Part shown: one piece after another, positions 9,688 through 41,311 of the stretch
Layout: every line of letters starts with the position of its first letter
Numbering within the stretch: the first letter of the stretch is position 1
Assembly: GCA_017508065.1 (NCBI GenBank)
Contig: JAFVZR010000112.1
Coordinates: 1-52,313 of the forward strand
DNA: 52,313 nucleotides
From: Candidatus Methanomethylophilaceae archaeon
GTDB taxonomy: Archaea > Thermoplasmatota > Thermoplasmata > Methanomassiliicoccales > Methanomethylophilaceae
Reading direction: 5' to 3'
Notes under the pieces: model-generated
The model's database searches: none
The model's input: the letters and a program-made list of their open reading frames with translations, nothing else
What the model was told of the DNA's origin: nothing
Position numbers and translations under genes: made by a program

Positions 9688-9773
9688 TGGCGCCGAGAGA
9701 GAGATTCGAACTCCCGAGGGCAAGGCCCAGCGGTTTTCGAGACCGCCGCCATACCGGGCTTGGCTATCTCGGC
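9688..9773 (-). tRNA. tRNA-Ser (anticodon CGA), long variable arm, CCA encoded
   Basis: The reverse complement reads GCCGAGA-TA-...-GCGGT-CTCGAAA-ACCGC-(variable arm GGGC/GCCC)-GGGAG-TTCGAAT-CTCTC-TCTCGGC-G-CCA. Confidence 0.9.
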
Positions 9774-13470: not shown

Positions 13471-13645
13471 GGAAAGAGTACAATGCTTGTGGCATGCCGC
13501 GGACGGTCGTTGCGCCAGTTGTAAATCCAAGCGTATCAGATTGGATGTTCTCAAGATCCCTGATTATGAGATGTGCGTCAAGGAACGCGACTATCCCACA
13601 TGTGAGTTCTTCAAGGAGAAGCCCATCGTCCCGGGGAAGAAATGA
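13463..13645 (+). CDS. Small Cys-rich hypothetical protein (60 aa, 6 Cys)
   Basis: It overlaps the upstream ORF by 8 nt and the downstream ORF by 4 nt (ATGA). It contains the motifs 'CLWHAADGRCASC' and 'C...C'. Confidence 0.45.
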   Translation: MTEERVQCLWHAADGRCASCKSKRIRLDVLKIPDYEMCVKERDYPTCEFFKEKPIVPGKK

Positions 13646-14124
13646 CCGATGATATCATGGATTGGCTCGCTGAGCTCGAGTCGGATTTGAGGCAGAAGAA
13701 GGACCGTACGGAATCGTTGGACGATCTCTTTCAGATATCCTTCACGGGTTCTCTGGAGGAGTTGGAGAAGGTCTCTTGGTGTCTCGCGAAGATGGCTCAG
13801 AACAAATCTCAGGACATGAGGGTGTACACCATCCTGATGTCCATGTACGACGTCTCTAACGATGATGTGGTGGAGAACGTGGCCTGGGGTTTGGGTGAGT
13901 TGGCTGGAGTAGGTATCGGGTCCTATGAGGCTCTGAGCGTGCTTAAATCGCTCTTGGATTCCTCTGTGTCCACAGTACGTTCATCTGCTGCCTGGGCGGT
14001 TGGAAGGTATCAGCACCGTCTCCATCTGACAGATCCGGACGCCATATCAAAATTACAATCCTTGTTGGAGGACCCGTCGGAACTGGTAAGGAAATCCGCA
14101 AGATTCGCTATCGATGATGAGTAA
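13642..14124 (+). CDS. HEAT-repeat (PBS-lyase-like) protein
   Basis: The repeats 'VENVAWGLGELAG', 'VRSSAAWAVGRY' and 'VRKSARFAIDD' match the HEAT_PBS pattern. Confidence 0.65.
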   Translation: MTDDIMDWLAELESDLRQKKDRTESLDDLFQISFTGSLEELEKVSWCLAKMAQNKSQDMRVYTILMSMYDVSNDDVVENVAWGLGELAGVGIGSYEALSVLKSLLDSSVSTVRSSAAWAVGRYQHRLHLTDPDAISKLQSLLEDPSELVRKSARFAIDDE

Positions 14125-14178: not shown

Positions 14179-14254
14179 TGGTGGGCCCCCCCAGATTTGA
14201 ACTGGAGTCACATGCACCCCAAGCATGAAGGATACCAAGCTACCCCAAGGGCCC
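14179..14254 (-). tRNA. tRNA-Pro (anticodon GGG), CCA encoded
   Basis: The reverse complement reads GGGCCCT-TG-GGGT...-CATGC-TTGGGGT-GCATG-...-TCCAG-TTCAAAT-CTGGG-GGGGCCC-A-CCA. Confidence 0.9.
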
Positions 14255-15718: not shown

Positions 15719-15877
15719 ATTTCTGACTCTCCCGACATTGGGTAAAAGTTGCAATGAGCATTTAGTAGATAAAGCTATGCCACCCTTTATAGGTATATTA
15801 TAAGGAACAGTGTCAAAAGTAATGGCCAAACGTCATATAATAGTGTCACTTAACGAGTCATGTACGGAGTGTATCTT

Positions 15878-16912
15878 ATGATCAGATTCGGACCTGCTGG
15901 TATACCATTGTCTTGTAAAGGACGTACTTTGAAGGACGGGATTGAGGACGTCCACAACATGAGCCTCACTGCTATGGAGGTTCAGCTCGTGCGTGTCAAC
16001 ACCTTCAAGGACTATCCGGAGGAGGACGCCATCGGTCAGACGATCAGGACCATCCAGGATGGTCTGGTTCTTGAGATCATCAGGGACGACTGTGTCATCT
16101 CCGATCCAGACGAGCCGATCGAAGAGGATGATGAGCTCGTTTATCTCAACACCGGAATCGTAGACAATTTCGCAGAGCTTGGTATGCTCGGCGATCTGGC
16201 TAAGAGGCTCGATGTCAGTCTTTCACTTCACACTCCGAACTACATCGATCTCGGAACCAACAGCGATCTCACCCCCGTCTGTCTGAATTACCTCAGGTAT
16301 GCAGGCCAGATTGTAAACGAACTAAACGGTGATGTCGTCGTCACCAGCCTCGGACTCTATGATGGAACATGTTCTTCCGATGAAATCGATGATAATATCG
16401 TGGAGAACCTTGGGGATCTTGTGGATTGGTGGCAGGGAGCAGGTCTCAAACCCAAGATCGGTATCGAGATCACCGGACAGCAGGATGTCTACGGAACTCT
16501 CGATCAGGTTCTCGACCTCTGTGATCTCTTCGGTGATGCTGTCGTGCCCGTTCTCGATTTCCCCCACTATCACTCTCGCGGTTGCGGTTGTCTTGTCGAG
16601 CCCGCTGATTATGTCAATGTAATCGACCAGGTCCTCCCCTATTGTGATGGAAAGTTCTATGCACGTTTCGCGGGTGTCGAGCATGACGGAGAGGGTAATG
16701 AACTCAGGCTCACCCCCATCAAGAAGGGTGACCTCGTATTCGAGAAGCTCGGTGATGCACTTGCAGATATGTGTCCCGATGGAACGATCATTTCCTCTTC
16801 ACCTCTCCTTGAGCACGATGCGATGTACATGAGGATCATCTACGAAAGGATGGTCAATAAGAGGATCGCGAAGGCACTCAGGGCCTCCAAGAAGGCAGCT
16901 GTAGAGGAATGA
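15878..16912 (+). CDS. Xylose-isomerase-like TIM-barrel protein (endonuclease IV / sugar-phosphate isomerase superfamily) with an acidic insertion
   Basis: The N-terminus 'IRFGPAGIPLSCKGRTLKDGIEDVHNMSLTAMEVQLVRV' resembles archaeal EndoIV-like TIM-barrel proteins. An alternative ATG lies at 15860. Confidence 0.55.
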   Translation: MIRFGPAGIPLSCKGRTLKDGIEDVHNMSLTAMEVQLVRVNTFKDYPEEDAIGQTIRTIQDGLVLEIIRDDCVISDPDEPIEEDDELVYLNTGIVDNFAELGMLGDLAKRLDVSLSLHTPNYIDLGTNSDLTPVCLNYLRYAGQIVNELNGDVVVTSLGLYDGTCSSDEIDDNIVENLGDLVDWWQGAGLKPKIGIEITGQQDVYGTLDQVLDLCDLFGDAVVPVLDFPHYHSRGCGCLVEPADYVNVIDQVLPYCDGKFYARFAGVEHDGEGNELRLTPIKKGDLVFEKLGDALADMCPDGTIISSSPLLEHDAMYMRIIYERMVNKRIAKALRASKKAAVEE

Positions 16913-16913
16913 G

Positions 16914-17462
16914 ATGGAGAATCGCTATAAGGACACTCTGGACGCGTTGGTCCGTTGCATCCACGAATCTGCCGAATCTATAGATCCAGCATCTCTCAGT
17001 AATCTAGTGGAGCTGATTCTTTCCAAGAAGACCATATTCATCTATGGATCAGGAAGGTCCGGGCTGGTTGGGCAGTACTTCGCGGTCAGATTGGTGCAGC
17101 TGGGTCTTGATGTACATTTCGTCGGTGACATGACCACTCCGATCATTGGGTCCGACGATCTGACCATATTGATCTCCAATACCGGGGAAACGATGTCCGC
17201 CGTACAGACTGCCAACATCGCAAGGCGCATCGGTTCTCATGTCGTCTGTATAACCGCATCCAAGTTCAGTAAGCTGGCTCATGCGTCAAATTCTATGATA
17301 TTGCTTCATACTCCGAAGACCACTGATGGTAACCTCTTGCCTCTCGGTACACTTTTCGAGGATTCTGTCATCCTGATGTTCGATTCCCTGATTCCCGAAT
17401 TGATGAAGAAATTGGGACAGTCTGAAGCGGACATGCGTAAGAAACACGCGATCTGGGTCTGA
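16914..17462 (+). CDS. hxlB: 6-phospho-3-hexuloisomerase (SIS domain)
   Basis: The SIS/PHI pattern is 'IFIYGSGRSGLVGQYFAVRLVQLG...ILISNTGET...ARRIGSHVVCITA'. The gene starts 1 nt after the preceding stop. Confidence 0.8.
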   Translation: MENRYKDTLDALVRCIHESAESIDPASLSNLVELILSKKTIFIYGSGRSGLVGQYFAVRLVQLGLDVHFVGDMTTPIIGSDDLTILISNTGETMSAVQTANIARRIGSHVVCITASKFSKLAHASNSMILLHTPKTTDGNLLPLGTLFEDSVILMFDSLIPELMKKLGQSEADMRKKHAIWV

Positions 17463-17966
17463 TTATTCCATTACGATCATCTGTATCTGTTGCGGCCCAT
17501 CGATGGTGGAATCGAATACCTTCAACTGACGTAGTACTGGGTCTATCACCATAGCAAAACCGATGTGTCCCCCGAACAATCCGTTCTGGGTCTTTATGTC
17601 CGTATCCGACATGAAACATCCGCAACCCAGGTGTGAGTGGTACCATCCGATTATACGGTCACCATTCTTCAACTCATCTATCTCATCGATGAGCTGGGTC
17701 ATATCTGATTGATCGAATCTTACGCTGGTCTCGTCCGCTTCTAATTCGGATGATATCACACCTGTCGCGATAGCATATTCGCCATCATCGTCCTTGTAGA
17801 CCTTTCCGACGATGAGTCCCATGATCTCGGAATCGCGCAACAAACCCTCATCACCGTGGTCCGTTATGACGTCTATGAGGTCGTCACGGATGAAGAACGG
17901 AACTCCACGTACGGAGCGCTTTTTCACTTCTGGCTTATATTCATCCACACTTACAATCCGAGTCAT
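17463..17966 (-). CDS. JAMM/MPN+ metalloisopeptidase (Rpn11-like deubiquitinase / Ubl-processing protease)
   Basis: The full MPN+ motif is present, with 'EIMGLIVG' supplying the Glu and 'GWYHSHLGCGCFMSDTD' supplying HxH-x7-S-xxD. The ATG at 17966 overlaps the E2 stop as ATGA. The track's 56-codon N-terminal extension was rejected. Confidence 0.9.
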   Translation of the reverse strand: MTRIVSVDEYKPEVKKRSVRGVPFFIRDDLIDVITDHGDEGLLRDSEIMGLIVGKVYKDDDGEYAIATGVISSELEADETSVRFDQSDMTQLIDEIDELKNGDRIIGWYHSHLGCGCFMSDTDIKTQNGLFGGHIGFAMVIDPVLRQLKVFDSTIDGPQQIQMIVME

Positions 17967-18445
17967 TGTGTGCCACCGTAATGGATCTCTGCATCGAATT
18001 TGGGCGAATCGTCCGAAAAGTACTTCGCTGCGTCCATACACGATTCCGTACCGAACGGGCTCATTGGGTTGGGGTTGGAGACAAGGATCTCCACGCCTCT
18101 GAGGAACGTGAGCAACGGTGTTCCAAAGTCCCAAGTGTCCAACATCTTGGTGCAGACGTATCCTCCGTCCTCAGGGTCCATGATGTTAGGGTGGAATATC
18201 TTGGATTTCCATCTGACCTCTGGTTTCTGCATACCATACTCTTCAGTGAGTATGATATAGAATTCGTGTTCGGTAGTGGCCTTTCCGGGAGCTTCGTATC
18301 CTACGACCTTGCTCATGTGCATATCTATACGAATGGGGAATTCCGCTCTTTCGGAATCGAATTTAAAATCCGAACCGAGGTACTTTCCGCAATCCCTCAA
18401 TTCCGTTGCGATACGTCTTTTCAGAACTTGTGGTGGGAGCCCCAT
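17963..18445 (-). CDS. Ubiquitin-conjugating enzyme (E2, UBC fold) with canonical HPN...Cys active site
   Basis: 'KPEVRWKSKIFHPNIMDPEDGGYVCTKMLDTWDFGTPLLTFLRGVEILVSNPNPMSPF' parallels UbcH5 '[57 protein letters not shown]'. The catalytic Cys codon is at 18154-18152. The track start at 18451 is a TTG, and an ATG lies at 18445. Confidence 0.85.
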   Translation of the reverse strand: MGLPPQVLKRRIATELRDCGKYLGSDFKFDSERAEFPIRIDMHMSKVVGYEAPGKATTEHEFYIILTEEYGMQKPEVRWKSKIFHPNIMDPEDGGYVCTKMLDTWDFGTPLLTFLRGVEILVSNPNPMSPFGTESCMDAAKYFSDDSPKFDAEIHYGGTQ

Positions 18446-18687
18446 CGACAACCGCCTTCCGGATCTGGAATCATTTCAAGAACATCATCGTTCAGAAGTC
18501 CTGCATCCGGAACCTTAGTTTTTCCGGACAACAGTTTCTTGCCTTTCTTGAGGACATATGCGCCCGCATCCAGATTCCAGTACTCTCCTGCACTGACGAT
18601 AAGATCGTTCACGGTCTCGTCAGGTTCCGCTTCCATCCTAAGACTTGTTCCGTTGGCAAGATTCTTTATTGTGAGCCTAATGGTCAT
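18421..18687 (-). CDS. Ubiquitin-like beta-grasp protein precursor (88 aa; GG followed by a 9-aa tail, CRWGSHHKF)
   Basis: 'LRMEAEPDETVNDL' parallels ubiquitin 'TLEVEPSDTIENV', and 'KKGKKLLSGKTKV' parallels 'FAGKQLEDGRTLS'. A di-Gly sits at residues 78-79. The ATG at 18687 shares 1 nt with the E1 stop (TAATG). The track's 22-codon extension was rejected. Confidence 0.75.
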   Translation of the reverse strand: MTIRLTIKNLANGTSLRMEAEPDETVNDLIVSAGEYWNLDAGAYVLKKGKKLLSGKTKVPDAGLLNDDVLEMIPDPEGGCRWGSHHKF

Positions 18688-19457
18688 TACGATTCCCTCC
18701 CATGGTTCGGACAGGTCGGATCGATGTCCGCCTCTACAGTGAACATATCGCATAACGTTCCGTCATAATAAGTAACGTTCGTTATGCACAGTTCCGGATG
18801 TCCAGATATTATCTTCATGGTTTCACGGACCTGCATGGCGGCCACGATGGCAGTGGTGGTCACATCGGATGCGAGGTGTGGTGTGAATGATGAATTACCC
18901 GTGCATGTGTGTCTGGTTTCCATGGTCTTCACATGCGTACGGTTGGACACGCATTGTAGGCATGGTCTTCCGGGGAGGATGACGTGGACCTTCCCTCTCA
19001 TGCCATCGGTAGCTCCATCGATGTATGGGATACCATAATAGCAAGTGGTGGCGTTAAGGTCCATCCTTGCAAGTATGTTGTCCAAACAACCCAATGCGAT
19101 GTCGAATCCCTCTATATCGACGTCCTGTATCCTGCCAACGATCGGCACAATCTCTACATCCGGGGCTAGAAGGGATGCACGTTCGGCTACGATCTCGGAT
19201 TTCATACCCTTCTTCACATCTGAGTCGGTGAAGAACATGCATCTGTTGAGATTGGACAGTACGATATCATCCATGTCCACAACGGTGATCCTCTTGAATC
19301 CTGCAAGTACGAGGTTCTTGACGACCTCGTTCCCAAGTGCTCCGGCACCTGCGACGAGGACATTGGATGAACGTATCGCATCCTGGTCCACCCATGTGAT
19401 GCGCCTTTGGCGATCATATCTGTCCTTGTCCTCAAAACCCGCGGATACGGTGTCCAT
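18687..19457 (-). CDS. ThiF/MoeB/E1-like Ubl-activating adenylyltransferase (256 aa)
   Basis: The motifs 'RYDRQ', the Rossmann loop 'VLVAGAGALGNEVVKNL' and 'VDMDDIVLSNLNRC' are present. Zn-type pairs 'CLQC' and 'CPNH' occur, and 'HTCTG' is a candidate cross-over-loop Cys. Confidence 0.9.
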   Translation of the reverse strand: MDTVSAGFEDKDRYDRQRRITWVDQDAIRSSNVLVAGAGALGNEVVKNLVLAGFKRITVVDMDDIVLSNLNRCMFFTDSDVKKGMKSEIVAERASLLAPDVEIVPIVGRIQDVDIEGFDIALGCLDNILARMDLNATTCYYGIPYIDGATDGMRGKVHVILPGRPCLQCVSNRTHVKTMETRHTCTGNSSFTPHLASDVTTTAIVAAMQVRETMKIISGHPELCITNVTYYDGTLCDMFTVEADIDPTCPNHGRES

Positions 19458-19506: not shown

Positions 19507-19701
19507 ATGGCGCTGAAGTTGCCCGACCATTCACACTGTGTACATTGCGGAGATCCGATCCCTTTTGGTGAACAGTATTGTGATGAAAAGTGTCAGGATT
19601 CATTCACCAAGGAGTCCAAGAGGACTCGTATCAAGGATTTCGCATTCTATTCCACCGTGGCCTTGGCGTTGGTGGTCATTGTTTATGCCTATATCCTTTG
19701 A
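19507..19701 (+). CDS. DUF2116-like zinc-ribbon protein with a C-terminal TM helix
   Basis: 'CVHCGDPIPFGEQYCDEKCQ' is followed by a basic linker and the hydrophobic 'FAFYSTVALALVVIVYAYIL'. Confidence 0.6.
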   Translation: MALKLPDHSHCVHCGDPIPFGEQYCDEKCQDSFTKESKRTRIKDFAFYSTVALALVVIVYAYIL

Positions 19702-41219: not shown

Positions 41220-41238
41220 TAGTTGTGTAAAATGTGAG

Positions 41239-41311
41239 TGCTCATGCCGGGATTCGAACCCGGGTGTCGGCCTCGAAAGGGCCGAATGATTGGCCGCTAC
41301 ACTACATGAGC
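41239..41311 (-). tRNA. tRNA-Glu (anticodon TTC), CCA not encoded
   Basis: The reverse complement reads GCTCATG-TA-GTGTAGCGGCCAATCAT-T-CGGCC-CTTTCGA-GGCCG-ACAC-CCGGG-TTCGAAT-CCCGG-CATGAGC-A. Confidence 0.9.

Follow-up and report, generated by a model that had tools for sequence, protein, structure and literature searches.

Does contig JAFVZR010000112.1 of a Candidatus Methanomethylophilaceae archaeon (GenBank assembly GCA_017508065.1; Thermoplasmata, Methanomassiliicoccales) encode a true ubiquitin-conjugating enzyme (E2), and in what kind of system would such an enzyme work? The open reading frame (ORF) in question lies on the minus strand of this 52,313-nucleotide stretch, which as a whole is referred to as the window. 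It runs from an ATG at position 18445 to a stop codon at 17963-17965, with an in-frame TTG at 18451 near the ATG, and its product begins MGLPPQVLKRRIATELRD. The analysis confirmed that the ORF encodes a genuine UBC-type E2 with a eukaryote-type active site. It is accompanied by genes for an E1-like activating enzyme, a ubiquitin-like modifier (Ubl) and an Rpn11-like JAMM metalloprotease (Table 1), and we consider it likely that the four genes make up a ubiquitin-like modification system of Thermoplasmata, chromosomal and inherited vertically, with the E2 as its conjugating enzyme; its minimal cascade would operate without a ubiquitin ligase (E3).

We determined the family membership of the protein by profile and sequence comparison. 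Against Pfam, the E2 matched UQ_con (PF00179) with 40.6 bits, compared to a curated cutoff of 27 (E=2.3e-10), the match spanning only profile positions 47-134 of 140; beside UQ_con, no Pfam family reached E<0.1. The same profile was found in all 76 homologues (best E=2.2e-16), six of which also matched UEV weakly, and none of the 76 matched a Prok-E2 family. A phmmer search of the sequences in the PDB returned 249 chains at E<=1, the best 60 of which were all eukaryotic E2s; the top matches were human UBE2N and yeast Ubc13 (E about 1e-9), with the HPN motif, the catalytic Cys, the downstream Trp and the PNP loop aligned. When compared to UBE2D2, the E2 gave 26% identity over 84 residues by BLASTP, with one 3-residue and one 4-residue gap, and hhalign of the 76-sequence family profile recovered the same core (probability 97.6%, E=2.9e-12). 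A preliminary description of this DNA, made from the sequence alone, had the core tracking human UbcH5 position by position. The motifs it named are indeed present and in register, but given the level of identity, the two gaps and an L..W match that is one residue off, the wording was too strong.

The register of the active site was examined in a MAFFT L-INS-i alignment of the E2 with five human E2s, two of which were checked to be identical to PDB chains, and the Caldiarchaeum E2 (sequence as printed in PMC5654768). HPN, catalytic Cys, Trp and PNP loop share columns with all six, and the HPN/Cys register holds against UBE2N, Ubc13, UBE2D2, UBE2L3, UBE2I, UBE2B and the Caldiarchaeum E2. In the window, H85-P86-N87 and C98 lie within the segment SKIFHPNIMDPEDGGYVC (nucleotides 18152-18193) and W105 within MLDTW. 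Across the 76 homologues, which extend down to 38% identity, the invariant residues are R11, E15, H60, Y70, P75, W79, I83, F84, H85, P86, N87, I88, G94, G95, C98, W105, F114, P125 and C136. The fold was modelled by AlphaFold2 from the family alignment, with a predicted local distance difference test (pLDDT) score of 87.9 and a predicted template-modelling (pTM) score of 0.80; helices were assigned to residues 5-23, 111-123 and 134-144, and DSSP called only three strands. Foldseek found 237 matches to this model in the PDB at E<=0.001. The best 50 of them were all eukaryotic E2s, at probability 1.0 and with template-modelling (TM) scores of 0.5-0.68 over 140-155 columns, and the top matches included UBE2N, Rad6, UbcH5c, UbcH7 and Ubc9. 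Thus, the HPN and Cys are in register with the UBC active site, and the AlphaFold2 model and its Foldseek matches point to a UBC fold.

The key residues of helix 1 are R11 and E15, which in the MAFFT alignment fall on R5 and E9 of UBE2D2. The match of this helix is based on the modelled helix 5-23, on the full-length Foldseek alignments and on the invariance of these two residues. The likeness to the E1/E3-binding helix 1 of eukaryotic E2s, to which the preliminary description had pointed, is a matter of conserved residues; the partners that usually bind there are absent, as the E1 carries no ubiquitin-fold domain and a RING protein turned up neither in the window nor in 83 related loci (see below).

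The eukaryotic class I E2s (UBE2N/Ubc13, Rad6/UBE2A/B, UbcH5/UBE2D) are the best matches of this protein in sequence and in structure, and share with it the HPN Asn, the catalytic Cys, the Trp, a PNP loop with a Ser (NPNSP in Rad6) and the R...E pair of helix 1. The E2 departs from them in several respects, beginning with an identity of 19-28%. The His-to-Cys spacing is 13 residues instead of 10, which corresponds to an insertion of three residues between HPN and Cys, where the Caldiarchaeum E2 has two extra residues. In the divergent sheet region, the eukaryotic GGxF is replaced by an invariant EHxF. The YPxxPP region between strands 3 and 4 reads Y70-G-M-Q-K-P75 in the window and YPxEKP in the clade, Y70 and P75 being invariant and the other prolines variable. 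The SPA motif of loop 7, which is a RING/HECT contact, is not present; the window has W105-D-F-G-T and the clade W-[S/D]-F-x-[S/T], with no Pro. The position of UbcH5 Asp87 is occupied by Lys100, and helix 4 is not predicted. Finally, a clade-specific insertion of four residues, T-[D/E]-S-C-M, is located immediately behind loop 8 (NPNPxSP), which in canonical E2s borders the active site. The insertion is present in neither the eukaryotic E2s nor the Caldiarchaeum E2 and carries a second Cys, C136, that is invariant in the 76 homologues and could be a relay, a regulatory thiol or a disulfide partner of Cys98. A C-terminal HYGGTQ was considered as a second GG signal and dropped, as the homologues do not keep it.

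We asked what the genes around the E2 encode and how they are joined. The E1 stop and the Ubl start overlap in TAATG, with GGAGG upstream; the Ubl tail and the E2 start overlap by 25 nt; and the E2 stop and the JAMM start overlap in ATGA. E1, Ubl, E2 and JAMM thus form a translationally coupled four-gene operon. The E1 is recognized by Pfam as ThiF (E=3.7e-49, residues 15-250) and has no Cys-domain insertion, no C-terminal ubiquitin-fold domain and no rhodanese domain. Its best PDB matches were the active adenylation domain of Uba1 (3e-27), Uba3 (3e-22) and MoeB (7e-22). Invariant in 50 orthologues are GxGxxG, C166-x2-C169 ... C249-x2-H252, which is probably a zinc site, and C185-T-G, whose Cys, situated in the crossover loop, is a candidate for the thioester Cys.

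The AlphaFold2 model of the Ubl (pLDDT 82.4) shows a beta-grasp fold with a disordered tail (residues 80-88). No Pfam family passed its threshold for the Ubl, but Foldseek matched the model to SUMO, ubiquitin, NEDD8, ISG15 and the Caldiarchaeum ubiquitin (6fno/6fnn), with TM scores of 0.75-0.88 and root-mean-square deviations of 1.2-1.5 A. An IPDPEGG C-terminus is invariant in the related loci, where the GG is followed by no residue in 32 cases, by one in 30 and by 2-10 in 13. The nine-residue tail of the window Ubl looks like the by-product of a stop codon lost in a sublineage. Its DNA doubles as the first codons of the E2, read in another frame, and its length coincides with that of the nine-residue Caldiarchaeum propeptide. 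The tails of close relatives (CRWGSPGLC, CRWASPLRS, CRWDFPALC) resemble CRWGSHHKF, and most lineages stop 0-1 residue past GG.

The E1 is of the size of MoeB and aligns end to end with this 249-residue protein, and according to the background given in PMC5654768 the archaeal SAMPs double as sulfur carriers and protein modifiers. One might accordingly regard the Ubl and E1 as mainly a sulfur-carrier pair (of the MoaD/ThiS-MoeB/ThiF kind, cf. SAMP/UbaA), with an E2 that is accessory or non-catalytic. We hold this to be hardly credible: MoaD and ThiS are absent among the best 50 structural matches of the Ubl, which include ubiquitin, SUMO and NEDD8; the E1 scored below every cutoff of the NCBIfam equivalog models, those for ThiF, MoeB and UbaA included, and has no rhodanese domain; the active-site residues of the E2 are invariant throughout the clade; and the operon contains no conserved gene of cofactor biosynthesis.

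The fourth gene encodes a protein matching Pfam JAB (E=5.6e-13), with Rpn11 (7e-10), the Caldiarchaeum Rpn11 homologue 6fju/6fjv (4e-9) and CSN5 as its best PDB matches. The Glu of EIMG and GWYHSH-x7-S-x2-D are invariant in 73 orthologues, and the metal site is complete. The predicted tasks of the JAMM protein are the trimming of the Ubl tail and the removal of the Ubl from its conjugates.

How widely this arrangement is distributed bears on its origin. A protein search returned 107 relatives, the named carriers being Methanomethylophilaceae, Methanomassiliicoccaceae, Methanoplasma and metagenome-assembled genomes (MAGs) of Thermoplasmata; several of the 107 were already annotated "ubiquitin-conjugating enzyme E2". 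When one genome was scanned for each GTDB species, at least 500 relatives were confirmed, and synteny was assessed in the best 80 species genomes, all of which belong to Thermoplasmata once three misbinned contigs are corrected. Ubl, E2 and JAMM are adjacent in each of these loci whose sequence extends over the flanks. The E1 lies immediately upstream in most related loci, and an hxlB-like gene lies convergent downstream, even in distant Methanomassiliicoccaceae. The carriers include host-associated, sediment and marine MAGs. Bins of Eggerthellaceae, Anaerovoracaceae and Bacteroides salyersiae were rejected as bacterial carriers: the contigs concerned carry archaeal L18e/L13/S9/RpoN genes and show 84-92% nucleotide identity to Methanarcanum contigs. 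Since they are misbinned archaeal DNA, they provide no evidence for lateral spread. The misbinned species-representative contigs in GTDB are L013 (CAVJRF010000001.1), L015 (CAVFUJ010000010.1) and L016 (CAVGUW010000012.1). Among the neighbours of the nearest out-group E2s are Ub/E2/JAB or JAB/ThiF/E2 genes. We favour the view that the operon is a chromosomal, vertically inherited housekeeping system of Thermoplasmata.

An E2 named for Methanomassiliicoccus luminyensis in NCBI and UniRef belongs to this group, and its exact sequence was found in a ThiF-Ubl-UQ_con-JAB operon on metagenome contigs. In these contigs a DDE transposase and an IS605 OrfB/Cas12f-like TnpB flank the block (L087, 231-1211 and 7078-8223; L088, 7042-7665), which shows local mobile-element activity near an operon that is itself undisrupted.

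The genes for E1, Ubl, E2 and JAB together resemble the content of bacterial defence operons, and gene sets of this kind in CBASS (the Cap2 E1-E2 fusion) and in Bil/6E conjugate a Ubl or a target C-terminus. In addition, the Rossmann part of our E1 weakly matched models of Cap2 E1-E2 proteins (PADLOC, E about 1e-11; NCBIfam 6A-MBL cap2_3, 33 bits against a cutoff of 320). A bacterial-type anti-virus module (Bil, CBASS-Cap2 or 6A/6E) is nevertheless very improbable, and we rejected it. PADLOC was silent for the E2 and the Ubl and marginal for the JAB protein, and the matches of the E1 are generic Rossmann matches. Unlike variable defence islands, the chromosomal neighbourhood is identical across families, with a folP-like gene and a DUF2116 zinc-ribbon membrane protein upstream; downstream lie genes for an hxlB-like SIS isomerase and an AP-endonuclease-2-like TIM barrel, together with the archaeal L18e-L13-S9-RpoN cluster. 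Among viral contigs of IMG/VR, 28 pattern matches yielded no confirmed relative. According to the Ledvina preprint, the E2 domain of Cap2 has neither HPN nor the downstream Trp, and is also devoid of the Pro-rich motif and of helices 3-4. In the E2 described here, HPN, Trp and helix 3 are all present, and its gene, like those of its partners, is separate and lies in a core syntenic context. The claim that this is a canonical E2 and not the degenerate type of the defence systems, already made in the preliminary description, is thus borne out by UQ_con as sole family, by the motif register, by the UBC model and by the silence of PADLOC.

Since the best PDB and Foldseek matches are to eukaryotic E2s, E1s and Rpn11, and many of the carriers are host-associated, the E2 or the whole operon could be thought to have been acquired recently from a eukaryote, such as an animal host or gut protists. 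We judge this to be extremely unlikely. Identity to eukaryotic E2s reaches only 19-28%, and the overlapping genes are a prokaryotic operon arrangement. The system extends over Methanomethylophilaceae, Methanomassiliicoccaceae and other Thermoplasmata, sediment and marine MAGs included, with synteny kept. A rough and unsupported neighbour-joining tree of unlabelled representatives, which is indicative only, set the Thermoplasmata clade apart from the human E2 cluster, and in a published maximum-likelihood tree the Thermoplasmatota E2 clade branches deep within the archaeal E2/UEV clade (Lu et al., bioRxiv 2023; Cell Rep 2024).

A profile search of 1.8 billion representatives provided a further view of the partnership. 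Among distant relatives, fusions of Ubl and E2 with a GG at the junction (P0118, P0173, P0164, P0177) and fusions of E2 and JAMM (P0111, P0126) were recovered, and they support a functional link among Ubl, E2 and JAMM. Judging by the sequence of the junction, the GG would imply proteolytic release of the Ubl. Four other Ubl-E2 fusions (P0132, P0137, P0139, P0143) have lost the GG and the catalytic Cys and kept HPN; they may be UEV-like pseudo-enzymes.

We then considered how the four proteins could act together. For Caldiarchaeum, PMC5654768 and PMC6043591 describe a maturation step in which an Rpn11 homologue cuts off nine residues behind GG. Ubiquitin has to be processed in this way before the E1 activates it and hands it to the E2, and the two enzymes then conjugate it. 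This precedent was established biochemically, and the cascade proposed here follows it. The JAMM protein would first cut the short C-terminal tail off the Ubl precursor, exposing Gly-Gly, a step that the window Ubl and those of roughly 60% of lineages would require. The E1, which is of MoeB size and probably homodimeric, would adenylate the Ubl and hold it as a thioester of Cys185, from which transthiolation would move it to Cys98 of the E2. The E2 would then discharge the Ubl to amino groups of the substrate, most likely lysines, with Asn87 steadying the oxyanion and Ser129 at the Asp/Ser position, and for this it would need no dedicated RING E3, or would rely on a specificity factor that is unlinked. 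The same JAMM would reverse the modification. Independence from an E3 and lysine as the acceptor are the weakest links of this scheme.

What does the active site say about the acceptor? According to a review of non-lysine ubiquitylation (PMC9527308), lysine-directed E2s have the HPN Asn together with a downstream Asp or Ser. In the E2 described here HPN is invariant, and S129 of NPNPMSP aligns with D117 of UBE2D2 and S120 of UBE2B. The preliminary description had taken the HPN Asn as an argument for lysine-directed conjugation, and to this extent the argument stands. HPN supports lysine-directed transfer without proving it, because UbcH7, whose sequence we checked, also carries HPN and reportedly does not discharge to lysine. 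Moreover, Lys100 in place of Asp87 and a non-canonical loop 7, together with an invariant Cys136 beside loop 8 that could serve as a relay or regulatory thiol, would fit a cascade that is the same up to the E2~Ubl thioester and in which the E2 alone performs no aminolysis; the Ubl would then be handed over to an unlinked HECT/RBR-like Cys or to a non-lysine nucleophile, in the manner of UbcH7 or UBE2J2. We regard this as an unlikely course of events: the invariant HPN and the Ser at the Asp/Ser position are typical of lysine-directed E2s, and no conserved candidate for a partner gene lies beside the operon.

Several observations weigh against our preferred interpretation, namely an E2 that discharges its Ubl to lysines in an E3-less cascade. 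The match between the model and eukaryotic E2s is moderate (TM 0.5-0.68), helix 4 is not predicted, and the sequence methods leave the N-terminal third of the E2 unaligned, covering the C-terminal two thirds. In eukaryotes and Caldiarchaeum, helix 1 of the E2 is recruited by a ubiquitin-fold domain of the E1; here that domain is missing in spite of the invariant R11 and E15, and the E1 gene is non-adjacent in about a fifth of related loci. Because Lys100 replaces Asp87 and loop 7 has no SPA, the E2 could, to judge from these residues, be restricted to transthiolation or to non-lysine acceptors. Finally, a regular expression for a cross-brace RING found no match in six frames of the window and of 83 related loci (+/-6 kb), a scan that a divergent or distant E3 would escape; as it covered the window and the flanks of related loci with the RING pattern, an E3 encoded elsewhere in the genome is possible.

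The closest precedents are the operons of Caldiarchaeum and Asgard archaea (Nunoura 2011; Hennell James 2017, PMC5654768; Fuchs 2018, PMC6043591). In these, a ubiquitin-fold modifier with a C-terminal GG and a short propeptide (of nine residues both there and here) is likewise found in an operonic arrangement with a canonical UQ_con E2, which has HPN, Cys, Trp, a PNxxS/P loop and an insertion between HPN and Cys, and with a stand-alone Rpn11-like JAMM beside these genes. The Thermoplasmata system differs in that the small RING-finger E3 of their Clusters I/II was not found and in that its E1, of 256 residues, has neither a Cys domain nor a C-terminal ubiquitin-fold domain. Loop 7 of its E2 reads W-[S/D]-F-x-[S/T] where theirs reads WSP[A/S], and the DSCM insertion with the invariant Cys136 is found here. 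The hosts belong to the Thermoplasmata (Euryarchaeota sensu lato); of the named carriers, at least one species is in culture. By analogy, the Thermoplasmata system may work like the Caldiarchaeum/Asgard cascade without two of its defining features, an E1 with a ubiquitin-fold domain and a RING E3.

In gene content, the locus resembles the E3-less Ub-E1-E2-JAMM operons described in PMC6043591 (JAMM-3) and PMC5654768 (archaeal Cluster III), in which a Ubl, an E1 without a ubiquitin-fold domain, an E2 and a JAB protein are likewise co-located. These follow the bacterial Ubl-E2-E1-JAB operons of Iyer, Burroughs and Aravind. The JAMM protein, like the JAMM-3 group in PMC6043591, is more like Rpn11/CSN5 than are the desampylases JAMM-1/JAMM-2. 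This fit is one of gene content; the published text names no Methanomassiliicoccales. In contrast to the E2s of the E3-less prokaryotic operons, the E2 described here matches the eukaryote-type UQ_con alone and no Prok-E2 family.

The genes flanking the operon are of a housekeeping kind, and several of them are listed with it in Table 1. In Methanomethylophilaceae, Methanomassiliicoccaceae and other Thermoplasmata alike, the hxlB-like and AP_endonuc_2-like genes adjoin the operon, which may reflect plain synteny or a functional link. The DUF2116 gene is divergent from the E1 gene and overlaps at its 3' end with the folP-like gene of the opposite strand. We considered its product, the only zinc protein nearby, as an E3-like protein and did not adopt this idea: it has a single zinc ribbon and a transmembrane helix, and where folP lies elsewhere (L007) the gene remains beside folP. 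Probably, it is not part of the ubiquitin operon.

Table 1. Features of the window discussed in the text, with positions counted from its first nucleotide
Feature	Position	Strand	Remarks
E1-like activating enzyme	18687..19457	-	256 aa, single ThiF/MoeB adenylation domain
Ubl precursor	18421..18687	-	88 aa; ubiquitin-like modifier
Ubl, mature part	18451-18687	-	79 aa, ends ...EMIPDPEGG
Ubl, tail	18424-18450	-	9 aa, CRWGSHHKF, then stop codon
E2 ubiquitin-conjugating enzyme	17963..18445	-	160 aa; third gene in operon; UQ_con and motif register
E2, HPNIMDPEDGGYVC	18152-18193	-	
E2, H85-P86-N87	18185-18193	-	
E2, catalytic C98 codon	18152-18154	-	
E2, NPNPMSP (N124-P125-N126-P127-M128-S129-P130)	18056-18076	-	part of LVSNPNPMSP
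E2, C136 codon	18036-18038	-	within the T133-E-S-C-M137 insertion
JAMM/MPN+ metalloprotease, Rpn11-like	17463..17966	-	167 aa, MTRIVSV...
hxlB-like 6-phospho-3-hexuloisomerase	16914-17462	+	155.5 bits (cutoff 160); JAMM gene convergent
AP_endonuc_2/xylose-isomerase-like TIM barrel	15860-16912	+	next after the hxlB-like gene
DUF2116 protein	19507-19701	+	64 aa; single C-x2-C...C-x3-C zinc ribbon and C-terminal transmembrane helix
tRNA-Ser(cga)	9688-9773	-	
tRNA-Pro(ggg)	14179-14254	-	between HEAT-repeat-like ORF 13642-14124 and rpoN
tRNA-Glu(ttc)	41238-41311	-	

How much of this was known? Fort et al. 2015 (PMC4453063) reported M. luminyensis and Caldiarchaeum as the two archaea whose Rpn11-like MPN proteins group with eukaryotic Rpn11/Rpn8, and Grau-Bove et al. 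2015 did not list the Thermoplasmata lineage. RefSeq already calls the orthologues E2. In the literature that could be searched, we found no description of the operon, of the invariant PDPEGG modifier, of the fusions or of experiments on them; Cavalier-Smith 2020 has nothing on the subject. Canonical archaeal E2s are already known from Caldiarchaeum and Asgard archaea, and the established picture, in which canonical E2s predate eukaryotes, is unchanged. The preliminary description saw in this level of conservation a bearing on the archaeal origin or lateral spread of the eukaryotic ubiquitin system; that relevance is real, but it is not new, the E2s of Caldiarchaeum and Asgard being known and the Thermoplasmatota clade already standing in a published tree.

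The importance of the finding lies mainly in a system that is apparently E3-less, conserved and named in a cultured species. To our knowledge, Caldiarchaeum, which is uncultured, is the sole source from which archaeal E2-dependent ubiquitylation has been reconstituted; discussion of the process centres on Asgard archaea. One possible reading of the operon, which we put forward tentatively and think rather doubtful, is that it is a surviving intermediate of ubiquitin-system evolution, with a canonical HPN E2, a Ubl and an Rpn11-like protease, a MoeB-like E1 and no E3. If this were true, the eukaryote-type E2 active site would predate RING ligases and the elaboration of the E1 and would lie outside the Asgard/TACK lineage, Cys136 and the altered loop 7 would be adaptations to an E3-independent choice of substrate made directly by the E2, and M. 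luminyensis, which is cultured, would offer the first archaeal E2-dependent ubiquitylation system open to study in vivo.

Independently of that reading, the data point to a conserved, vertically inherited and probably E3-less system whose E2 has a canonical active site and which is found throughout Methanomassiliicoccales and related Thermoplasmata, methanogens of the animal gut included. Since M. luminyensis is in culture and the exact E2 sequence named for it lies in such an operon, a living archaeon can be used to test whether a MoeB-like E1 and no E3 suffice for a canonical E2 to work, what is modified, and whether the modification leads to the proteasome. The invariant ...PDPE-GG C-terminus should assist in this, as Glu-C digestion should leave a Lys-GG remnant on modified proteins and so make standard diGly proteomics applicable.

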